From: Escherichia coli
Lineage (GTDB): Bacteria > Pseudomonadota > Gammaproteobacteria > Enterobacterales > Enterobacteriaceae
Assembly: GCF_045037415.1 (NCBI RefSeq)
Contig: NZ_CP173438.1
Length of the DNA stretch: 64,000 nt
Reading direction: 5' to 3' (one strand)
Made by a program: the position numbers. Positions 48,301 to 51,300 of the stretch are shown piece after piece. The first letter of the stretch is position 1. Each line of letters starts with the position of its first letter.

Positions 48301-51300
48301 TGTTTTCATAAAAGCAAAGTCAACAAGATAAAACAATAAAAACTCTTACACAACCAGCTGATGTTTTTAAAATAGAGGATAATATAAGACAAGCATAACC
48401 TCGTTCACTTCAATGCTACTCCTATCGTTCTTTTGCGTCACAGAGCGCCTGCCGGACAACTGCATCATAGACCAAACGGAACTGCTTCCGTCGATTAATC
48501 AGATGGCAGCGCATAAACACGCTCAACAACCCGTTTGACTGCTTCAATTTTAAGCTCTTCGGAATAACGCTTACCGTGTAAGTCTCCCTGCAAAACGAGC
48601 TATCAACTTTTAAGGAGTCTCTGGCCCCCCTGCTTCCGCTCCTGGCACACAGCAGCCCTAGAGACAGTGGAGTAAAGTCATGGAGGCTCGGTGGGGGGAG
48701 GTGCAAATCCTCCCATACAAAAAATACGAAAATCAGTAACGGCTAGAAATCATTCAATACATGCACTCTCGAAATTGCATCAGCCAACCGCAAAACGTTA
48801 TTTCAAAGCCTACTAGCTGCCTTACTTTTTTCCTCAATAACGCGTCGCCAGCAGGAAACAACCTAATCCCTGTTTTGGGCCTCAAAGCTGCTAATGATAA
48901 TCATTTTCATTTTGTATAGGCTGTGCTATAAAACATAGCCGTTGCTATATTTGTTCTAATTTTGCTCACTATAGGTACTAAATTATGCACTCGATAAAAA
49001 AAGTAACCATGCTCTTGGGGGGGCTCGCACTCACCTGCTCGATCGCATTTCAGGCAAGTGCAACTGAAAAATTCAAGGTCATTACAACATTTACCATCAT
49101 CGCGGATATGGCCAAAAACGTGGCGGGAGATGCTGCAGAAGTCTCATCCATAACCAAGCCTGGTGCAGAAATTCATGAGTATCAGCCTACCCCTGGCGAT
49201 ATTAAACGTGCGCAGGGGGCACAACTGATTCTCGCCAATGGTATGAATCTGGAATTGTGGTTCCAACGCTTTTACCAGCATCTCAATGGGGTTCCAGAAG
49301 TAATTGTCTCTTCGGGTGTGACGCCTGTAGGGATCACCGAAGGACCCTATGAGGGCAAACCTAACCCCCATGCATGGATGTCGCCAGATAATGCTCTGAT
49401 TTACGTCGATAATATTCGTGATGCGTTGATAAAATACGATCCGGCAAATGCACAAACCTACCAACGCAATGCCGATACTTATAAAGCCAAGATTACCCAA
49501 ACCCTTGCCCCCCTGCGTAAGCAGATTACGGAACTCCCTGAGAATCAGCGATGGATGGTCACCAGTGAAGGGGCTTTTTCTTATCTCGCACGCGATTTGG
49601 GGCTAAAAGAGCTTTATCTGTGGCCGATTAATGCCGATCAACAAGGAACACCGCAGCAGGTACGTAAGGTTGTTGATATAGTTAAGAAAAATCATATCCC
49701 GGCAGTCTTTAGCGAGAGTACGATTTCCGATAAACCAGCGCGTCAGGTTGCGCGTGAAACCGGCGCACACTACGGCGGTGTGCTCTATGTCGATTCCCTG
49801 AGCACAGAAAACGGCCCGGTACCGACGTATATCGACCTTCTTAAGGTTACTACCAGTACGCTGGTACAGGGAATTAAAGCTGGGAAAAGGGAGAAATAAT
49901 GATGCAATCTGCAGGCATTGTCGTTAATGATGTTACTGTCACCTGGCGTAACGGGCACACAGCACTGCGCGATGCATCCTTCACAGTACCAAGTGGATCT
50001 ATTGCCGCTCTGGTTGGGGTAAACGGTTCCGGAAAATCGACGTTGTTTAAAGCGATTATGGGATTTGTGCGTCTGACCAGCGGAAAGATATCTGTTCTGG
50101 GTATTCCCACGCGACAGGCGTTACAGAAAAACCTGGTTGCCTACGTCCCTCAGTCAGAAGATGTTGACTGGTCATTTCCTGTACTGGTGGAAGATGTGGT
50201 GATGATGGGCCGCTATGGGCATATGGGTATGTTGCGTATCGCCAAAAAGAGGGATCGTCAAATTGTCACCGATGCGCTGGAACGTGTCGATATGGTGAAT
50301 TTTCGCCATCGACAAATCGGCGAGCTTTCCGGTGGACAAAAGAAACGCGTCTTTCTGGCGAGAGCGATTGCACAGCAGGGTGATGTGATCCTGCTGGATG
50401 AACCTTTTACTGGCGTTGATGTGAAAACCGAAGCCAAAATCATCAGCCTGTTGAGGGAGTTACGCGCGGAAGGCAAAACGATGCTTGTCTCAACACACAA
50501 TCTCGGATCCGTCACGACATTTTGCGATTATACGGTCATGGTCAAAGGCACCGTCCTGGCAAGCGGGCCGACAGACACCACTTTTACAGCCGAGAACCTA
50601 GAGCTGGCTTTTAGCGGCGTACTGCGCCATGTCACACTTAACGGCTCGGAAGAAAGCATTATTACTGACGATGAACGCCCTTTTGTGGCTCATCGACCGT
50701 CAGCGGTGCAGAGGGAAGAAAGATGAACGTGCTACTGGAACCCTTCAGCTATGAATATATGCTCAATGCGATGTGGGTCTCGGCGATGGTCGGCGGTCTC
50801 TGCGCTTTCCTGTCATGCTATCTGATGCTAAAAGGCTGGTCGCTGATTGGCGATGCGTTGTCGCACTCTATTGTCCCGGGTGTTGCGGGGGCATATATGC
50901 TGGGGCTTCCGTTTTCTCTGGGAGCCTTCTTTTCCGGCGGACTGGCTGCGGGCAGCATGCTGTTTCTTAACCAACGCACCCGCTTAAAAGAAGATGCCAT
51001 CATCGGTCTGATCTTCTCGTCCTTTTTTGGCCTGGGGCTGTTTATGGTGTCATTGAACCCGACATCTGTGAACATTCAGACCATCGTCCTGGGCAATATT
51101 CTGGCAATCGATCCGGCGGATATCCTGCAACTCACTATCATTGGCATTCTCTCGATCATCGTGCTTTTTTTCAAATGGAAAGATCTTATGGTGACCTTTT
51201 TCGACGAGAATCACGCCCGTGCTATTGGATTGCATCCGGGCAGATTAAAACTCCTCTTCTTCACCCTGCTGTCGGTTTCGACCGTTGCGGCGCTGCAAAC

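Follow-up and report, generated by a model that had tools for sequence, protein, structure and literature searches.

A probable mosaic seam between two cargo blocks, bordered by hairpins, in the b region of a phage-21-like prophage of Escherichia coli

The window analysed here, a stretch of 64,000 nucleotides (contig NZ_CP173438.1 of assembly GCF_045037415.1), is a part of the Escherichia coli chromosome in which bluR-ycgX-ymgL and a 3′ fragment of icd are followed by the cargo end of a lambdoid prophage. This prophage is phage-21-like: a segment of about 300 bp (48400-48720) between an orphan gene and the sit promoter has icd′, int and xis on one flank, while sitABCD and the genes for tail fibres lie on its other flank; the plus strand runs the same way as int, xis and the ea genes of phage lambda. 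In a preliminary description the segment had been left unassigned, with the suggestion that it could be the remnant of a deleted gene, a structured RNA or part of a recombination junction introduced with sitABCD. Most probably the segment does not code and has no job as a unit, but is a seam within the b region of the prophage, ordinary for a lambdoid cargo region; it is a mosaic in which a cassette carrying the orphan gene meets a block containing sit, with hairpins at the borders.

Phage 21 (OL657228) is 98.7% identical to the window in this region, and its counterpart of the segment has attP/icd′ on one side and the side tail fibre genes on the other; genomes of sequence type 131 (ST131) and of other extraintestinal pathogenic E. 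coli (ExPEC) are 100% identical. Nearly unchanged (at least 99% identity), the segment is found in about 740 of 5,426 complete E. coli genomes (about 14%) and in about 20 sequenced phages. The prophage belongs to the NC-SV/phage 21 type, for which a small RNA, svsR, has been described that is located at the 3′ end of cI and restricts infection by other phages (PMC12803456). As an occupant of 48400-48720 svsR was rejected because of this map position.

Three relatives divide the region into blocks. An unrelated genomic island of strain CFIAFB20190157 (L172), which also harbours an integrase pseudogene, a restriction enzyme, a GTPase and Ag43, shares 47443-48653 at 99.67% identity, which comprises the orphan gene, the relic of an insertion sequence (IS) and a short module that we call B. 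The icd prophage of strain Rb-3 (L173), which has sit, shares 46000-47383 and then 48635-52810, the latter with 98.9% identity and comprising two further modules, C and D, and sitABCD; its left-hand cargo (L173 2019-4000) consists of acetyltransferase, helix-turn-helix (HTH) and GNAT genes in place of the orphan-gene cassette. Phage 4A7 shares 46839-47348 and 48848-53218, without C and D. Since the three relatives share different blocks, the left and the right part of the segment travel separately. The left two thirds are part of the cassette of the orphan gene and the right third is part of the C-D-sit block, with the seam at 48635-48653. The recombination junction suspected in the preliminary description therefore exists; it is a cassette junction, found by comparing homology with the island and with Rb-3. 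In the island, a match to IS102 RNA upstream of Ag43 (L172 5404-5640) is unrelated to the segment.

At the seam lies an imperfect hairpin, a (48635-48656, plus strand), with the sequence TCCGCT-CCTGGCACAC-AGCAGC, inside which identity to the island ends (48653) and identity to Rb-3 begins (48635). It is present in a single copy in the window, where 0.01 would be expected by chance, and the island has at the same place a perfect hairpin, TCCGCT-CCTGGCACAG-AGCGGA. A second hairpin, b (47435-47458, plus strand), which reads GTCTATT-ATGAGCGAAC-TGCGGAC and is chimeric and degenerate, borders the orphan-gene cassette on its left: the 4A7 backbone is shared as far as 47449 and homology to the island begins at 47443, the overlap being the loop core TGAGCGA. 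In the island hairpin b reads GTCCGCA-GTGAGCGAAC-TGCGGAC and is preceded, 20 nt earlier, by another hairpin a, giving an intact unit of a, 20 nt and b (L172 3015-3078). The crossovers at both borders of the left block thus map to 7-nt loop cores, TGAGCGA in b and TGGCACA in a. Phage 4A7 has 476 bp between hairpin b and sit (L014 4524-5001), without a, C and D; window, 4A7 and Rb-3 represent at least three cargo states at this place. On inspection of the sequence a sigma-54 site (TGGCAC-N5-TTGC) in the loop of hairpin a was rejected for its wrong spacing, and a search of three a-b units against Rfam returned no family.

The two hairpins are not confined to this prophage. In general form a reads (G)TCCGCT-NNTGGCACAN-AGCGGA(C), and b has the same arms around the loop NTGAGCGANN, both loops being 10 nt long. 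The perfect pattern of a specifies 19 bases, for which simple arithmetic gives about one chance match per 3 × 10^11 positions, and occurs in at least 120 viral contigs of IMG/VR, with 104 unique contexts among the matches listed (L174-L293); its carriers are lambdoid and P2-like phages, phage-plasmids and islands. Again among the matches listed, 153 contexts of a fall into 82 clusters by their left flank and 40 by their right flank, which are combined in 92 ways. Module C is one of these right-flank families and is joined to 16 left flanks; another, R2, is the 3′ flank of a gene annotated as tail-fibre assembly protein and is joined to 19. This gene presumably is gene G of P2-like phages, the neighbour of the Z/fun locus. 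In seven pairs compared, the same cargo is joined to different backbones at hairpin a; identity reaches TGGCACA in five of them and the left arm TCCGCT only in the other two, and all seven diverge from the first base after the core.

The pair brackets variable cargo in more than 100 viral contigs. Of 87 cases, 86 have hairpin b on the strand of a. In 22 cases b lies 42 nt to the right of a, in 3 more the distance is 39-40 nt, and in 56 b is located to the left, 0.5-6 kb away. From this spacing and polarity follows a layout of b-cargo-a units parted by a-20nt-b spacers, in which the cargo genes, the orphan gene included, mostly run from a towards b. Position 4 of the stem is C-G, T-G or T-A in b and C-G, C-A or T-A in a, a variation suggesting that pairing is important, with many of the copies being kin by descent. 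In lambda a hairpin b stands upstream of ea59, and module C opens with a degenerate a (HK630/L004 4-26 and ~3001), so that ea59-ea31 is bracketed likewise. In other prophages the neighbours of C-D are typical defence genes (GIY-YIG, GmrSD, EcoRII, Mrr-like and DUF4145). Some loci of the hairpin survey hold copies of the Rfam family STnc100 (L251 2560-2731 and 3019-3224; L204 3145-3290), which are unrelated to the segment.

The b region of lambda and the so-called morons are variable cargo sites of temperate phages. The known cargo hotspots (lambda b, P2 Z/fun, tin-old, P4) are like the layout described here in that variable genes, often for defence, occupy a fixed position among conserved backbone genes; they differ in that the borders here are two defined hairpins of 22-24 nt, common to unrelated backbones. 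The mechanism by which hotspots exchange cargo has been stated to be unknown (Rousset et al., 2022; PMC9122126), and border hairpins are not mentioned in the phage hotspot literature searched, which included this paper. The sequences of a and b are not printed in the literature searched either, a search that left out the P2 papers Nilsson 2004 and Odegrip 2006, possibly on border repeats.

Arms of TCCGCT and AGCGGA around a 10-nt centre, with the switch of identity after TGGCACA or TGAGCGA, fit a site-specific exchange as well as an exchange over short homology. The a and b hairpins would be the sites by which temperate phages swap cargo. A dedicated site-specific activity on sites with the same arms and different cores could account for the swapping, a view to which we give somewhat less than an even chance. 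Ordinary short-homology recombination at hairpins that are kept for another reason, the alternative, appears to us only slightly less likely, and other causes take up the remainder; the approximately 27 bp of shared sequence could also support rare recombination of the RecA or Red type. Conserved arms, two distinct cores and a strict polarity and spacing would seem to fit a heterospecific exchange better than terminators.

The most far-reaching proposal, which we make tentatively and consider unlikely rather than likely, is that a and b are the heterospecific sites of a natural cassette-exchange system, in which b-cargo-a units cross over at the 7-nt cores. Defence, virulence and orphan genes would then be carried as b-cargo-a units between unrelated temperate elements, with lambdoid b regions (lambda ea59-ea31), P2-like Z/fun loci, phage-plasmids and CP4-type islands as participants and a putative activity of host or phage as the catalyst. 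Such a system would resemble the gene cassettes of integrons (attC) and the engineered recombinase-mediated cassette exchange at heterospecific lox or FRT sites: cargo lies between a pair of short palindromes whose arms agree and whose cores differ, with fixed polarity and an apparent crossover in the central core. The likeness is one of working only: an IntI-type integrase, attI and an R/L box consensus are missing here, the arms measure 6-7 bp, and membership is not claimed.

Several points weigh against the seam, and the exchange at its hairpins, as we read them. Both hairpins of the window are imperfect (C.A mismatch, chimeric arms), and these copies may no longer be active. In the two pairs in which identity ends at TCCGCT, the two loop bases before the core differ as well. 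A crossover can be located only between polymorphic bases, and the contexts were gathered by searching for the hairpin, which puts breakpoints elsewhere outside the sample. No gene was found to be consistently linked to the hairpins, and no recombinase could be tied to them. Two more points concern the segment itself: module B, module C or the GC-rich hairpin at 48696-48714 may have a regulatory role, and the assignment of one stretch of the left block to an IS3-family OrfB, described below, hangs on one weak pairwise score.

The orphan gene (47528-48286, minus strand), the cargo of the cassette, encodes 252 amino acids (phrog_20520) and has no match in Pfam or PADLOC. In sister cassettes its slot is taken by restriction and defence genes, which makes it a candidate defence gene. 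Relatives outside the prophage/cassette lineage were not found in IMG/VR, and its contexts are therefore of no use for dating the IS insertion next to it. The AT-rich 5′ flank of the gene (48287-48424) occurs only alongside it, without homology outside the cassette lineage. The segment was correctly described as richer in GC than its surroundings (0.511 at 48400-48720 versus 0.334 at 47528-48399 and 0.375 at 48721-48984); the mean of the whole window being 0.487, it is the flanks, and not the segment, that are the outliers.

To the right of this flank lies what is probably a single IS3-family relic (48425-48576, minus strand). Its better preserved part (48504-48576) corresponds to codons 3 to ~27 of orfA, encoding GKRYSEELKIEAVKRVVERV, and has 85-88% nucleotide identity to the first 74 nt of IS3-family orfA genes. 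Such copies number about 1,900 among plasmids, with intact ones on plasmids of Enterobacterales, and another 1,900 or so among E. coli records, the K-12 relic beside yagB (CP4-6) being one. In an alignment to an intact IS (L006), which carries inverted repeats of 44 nt, homology begins with orfA codon 3; the left repeat, the leader and the start codon are absent. About 25 codons of orfA remain; translated in a frame of 32 codons, the fragment matches Pfam HTH_Tnp_1 with E = 0.0045 (17.6 bits, below the cutoff of 24.1) and phrog_17819 with E = 4e-7. The neighbouring stretch (48425-48499) probably is an N-terminal remnant of OrfB: it encodes INRRKQFRLVYDAVVRQALCDAKER, which shares 13 of 37 identities with residues 27-63 of IS3 OrfB (E = 5e-4 in a single BLASTP comparison), a resemblance that the annotators of phage 21 had noted too, with the label 'unconvincing'. 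Profile searches gave no match for this stretch, and none to the rve (DDE) domain. Because the OrfB-like piece is collinear with the orfA fragment, the two probably derive from one IS, from which about 300 bp between them have been deleted.

With IS3-family elements the segment thus has in common 73 bp of the orfA start and a collinear, weakly OrfB-like stretch on the same strand; it differs from them by lacking terminal inverted repeats, start codon, frameshift site and DDE domain. The IS3 piece is a passenger relic without ends, not an element. At the sharp boundary 48576/48577 it gives way to module B (48577-48634), 58 bp of non-coding sequence with about 82% identity to unannotated sequence in Klebsiella phage-plasmids, in which it also adjoins hairpin a. 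Module B was considered as the left end of an IS (IS3, IS66 or Tn7-like TGT ends) and rejected, since the Klebsiella copies do not lie beside transposases.

Beyond the seam follows module C (48635-48718, plus strand), the conserved non-coding partner of module D. The C-D unit is 80-87% identical to the spacer between ea31 and ea47 in lambda/HK630 and to sequences in P1-like plasmids and many prophages. In IMG/VR the C-D copies become homologous to the window at 48633-48643, and those with D only at 48719 or 48729; homology ends at 48790-48805. Among 42 unique viral variants none has C without D, and the pattern of module C has no match in 100,044 species-representative genomes, which were searched for a chromosomal parent. 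The yecE and ompW loci, the sources of other prophage-borne attB, were rejected as the origin of module C for lack of homology. Homologues of C-D differ from each other by 1-base indels, by which the small open reading frames (ORFs) annotated over module C are excluded.

The preliminary description had also pointed out a minus-strand ORF of 94 codons. It is present (48422-48706, TTG start), and it is a chance ORF, not a gene: it spans module C, module B, the orfA fragment and, as its C-terminal part, the OrfB-like fragment, four modules of differing origin, of which it reads the orfA fragment out of the transposase frame. Its length is no evidence for a gene, the window containing 143 stop-free stretches of at least 94 codons in six frames. 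In the relatives it is interrupted, at 48653 in the island and at 48635 in Rb-3. Short 'hypothetical proteins' are annotated here in phage 21 and in several lambda-like records, as they would be if this ORF or one of 41 codons on the plus strand (48691-48816) were a small phage gene. Against such a gene, which we think very improbable, neither ORF has a family in four libraries (the 94-codon ORF was searched in Pfam, PHROG, NCBIfam and PADLOC), neither is called by the NCBI Prokaryotic Genome Annotation Pipeline (PGAP), and the 41-codon ORF shifts frame between window and lambda through a 1-nt indel. For the idea of a deleted-gene remnant this means that it holds for the orfA start at 48504-48576, weakly for the OrfB-like stretch at 48425-48499, and not for the 94-codon ORF.

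Module D is represented in the window by a shortened copy, D′ (48719-48805, plus strand), with the tail fibre and sit genes on one side and the att/icd′ end on the other. Judged by its sequence it is a ykgJ/ecpE-derived attachment sequence of the type of attB-in-PP_2 and the HK633 attP: it has 80.5% identity over 82 bp to the ykgJ-ecpE spacer of K-12 (L011 3233-3314) and matches the annotated attP of phage HK633 at 80.8% over 73 bp. Nakamura et al. (2021; PMC8112680) described attB-in-PP_2 as 96 bp of chromosomally derived sequence that lambda-like prophages have at their cargo end and that serves other phages as an integration site. Like it, D is about 80% identical to the K-12 ykgJ/ecpE spacer and located at the cargo end of a lambda-like prophage. 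It differs in that the window copy lies in a phage-21/ExPEC prophage beside sit, and not at loci of type III secretion system (T3SS) effectors, that it is preceded by C instead of more ykgJ/ecpE sequence, and that it is cut in a terminator hairpin. No phage was seen integrated into the D of the window, split copies not having been looked for systematically. D-like sequence is present in 5,393 of 5,426 E. coli genomes, at a median of three places per genome.

Over module D the PGAP annotation of several genomes has frameshifted 'capsid' or 'nucleocapsid' pseudogenes (L016 3102-3216; H29, H235, H237, H240 and H247); such calls over D homologues (window 48736-48850) probably come from a spurious family seeded by non-coding sequence. 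In lambda/HK630 (L004 3155-3274, minus strand) and in the K-12 ykgJ-ecpE spacer (L011 3181-3249, plus strand) there are sub-threshold matches to Rfam CssrB (Shigella sRNA B), with 17-22 bits versus a gathering score of 76 and on the strand opposite the D terminator hairpin.

The sharp 5′ edge of the C-D unit in about 40 variants raised the question whether it could be the gene of a plus-strand small RNA (sRNA) of about 190 nt, of which the window would have a truncated copy. Most D copies end in a hairpin with a T-run, as would an sRNA gene with an intrinsic terminator, and pairs in the stem have changed in a compensatory manner (five sequences with A-U/G-C, four with C-G/U-A, and the K-12 version besides); the primary sequence is conserved, with 86% mean column identity, and the 1-base indels rule out coding. 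The GC-rich hairpin GGGAGG-TGCAAAT-CCTCCC of the preliminary description, which is indeed present in module C with slightly corrected coordinates (48696-48714, plus strand), would be a structural or protein-binding stem of this RNA. Apart from the CssrB matches, however, Rfam is silent at E ≤ 10 on the lambda copy; at -15.9 kcal/mol the consensus fold is weak, the terminator alone showing covariation, and a promoter/terminator scan found no promoter-like site in the segment. Reading the D half as an att sequence explains it just as well (PMC8112680), and the window copy is without the right arm of the terminator. We consider such an sRNA gene improbable.

By count the GC-rich hairpin is unremarkable, because the window contains 22 perfect GC-rich hairpins of 6 bp, as compared with 7.1 ± 2.9 in shuffled sequences. 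It is kept in about 40 homologous copies, phage lambda included, and hence is not a chance feature; in a set of 21 homologues its pairs survive in 15-21, and compensatory changes are almost absent. It is followed by ATACAAAAAA on the plus strand and by CCCACC on the minus strand and is not a terminator, a scan of 47400-49100 having found 0 terminator-like sites.

The attachment sites of phages often contain the 3′ ends of tRNA genes. A stem of 5-6 bp with a 7-nt loop, TGCAAAT, resembling TTCAAAT could therefore be a decayed T-arm, making the segment the scar of an integration into a tRNA gene, and in one homologue (L116) the hairpin reads GGTTCAAATCC. ARAGORN finds neither a tRNA nor a tmRNA in the window, though, the Rfam tRNA models are silent on the intact lambda copy even with the limit relaxed to E ≤ 10, an acceptor-stem complement does not follow the hairpin, and the species-representative genomes hold no chromosomal parent of C. 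We find this origin scarcely credible. For the window copy, the suggestion of a structured RNA finds no support in the Rfam 15 covariance models, which give no match at E ≤ 1 in 47000-50000, nor in the single-sequence fold z-scores, which for the two strands are -0.55 and +0.48 and not significant.

The sit operon has its own upstream region (48800-48984, plus strand), with promoter and regulator boxes, in common with plasmid-borne sit. That the segment as a whole is the normal regulatory region of sitA and arrived with the operon is suggested by its position directly upstream of sitA and by the linkage of C-D to sit in two icd prophage types. This reading deserves next to no credence: about 1,000 sit plasmids (ColV-type) match the window only from ~48800, at 85%, with IS1 upstream there, the sit homology of phage 4A7 begins at 48848, and in lambda, P1-like plasmids and many prophages C-D lies beside unrelated cargo. 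The segment is thus not the ordinary upstream sequence of all sit carriers. Of the suggestion that it was introduced with sitABCD, one part stands, as C and D accompany sit in the window/phage 21 and in Rb-3; C and D are, however, missing from plasmid sit and from 4A7, and the IS relic and module B accompany the orphan gene.

The joint between D and sit lies at 48800-48806, to the right of the segment as first described and inside the loop of the D terminator hairpin. Since the sit block begins in this loop, the D of the window keeps the left arm only (~48790-48805). At the joint GTTATT in the window faces GTTCATT in plasmid sit, a microhomology that is consistent with illegitimate joining rather than with a site-specific event.

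The history of the region, as read from these comparisons, would be as follows. An ancestral b region of the phage 21 type would have had the order icd′ - b - cargo - a - C - D - cargo, into which sit would have arrived by a separate, illegitimate event inside the D terminator loop. A later double crossover at b and a would have brought in the orphan cassette with its already dead IS3 relic, from a donor like the island of strain CFIAFB20190157, and taken out the earlier cargo, perhaps an acetyltransferase/GNAT set as in Rb-3. In these ExPEC prophages sitABCD sits beside, not inside, the exchangeable cassette.

For the window itself the result is housekeeping: an unannotated stretch is explained and a spurious ORF removed. 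Not the segment but the hairpin-bounded cassette layout is the lead of interest. For P2 an instance of the border hairpins may already be described (Nilsson et al., 2004). A defined border motif of 22-24 nt would open the mechanism of cargo swapping, unknown according to PMC9122126, to direct experiment. The hairpins stand in P2-like phages as well as in lambdoid ones. A title of the Nilsson group from 2004 (MBE 21:1) reportedly speaks of site-specific recombination in P2-like phages. The a/b motif would be a sequence handle for finding cargo cassettes in prophages, including new defence genes.

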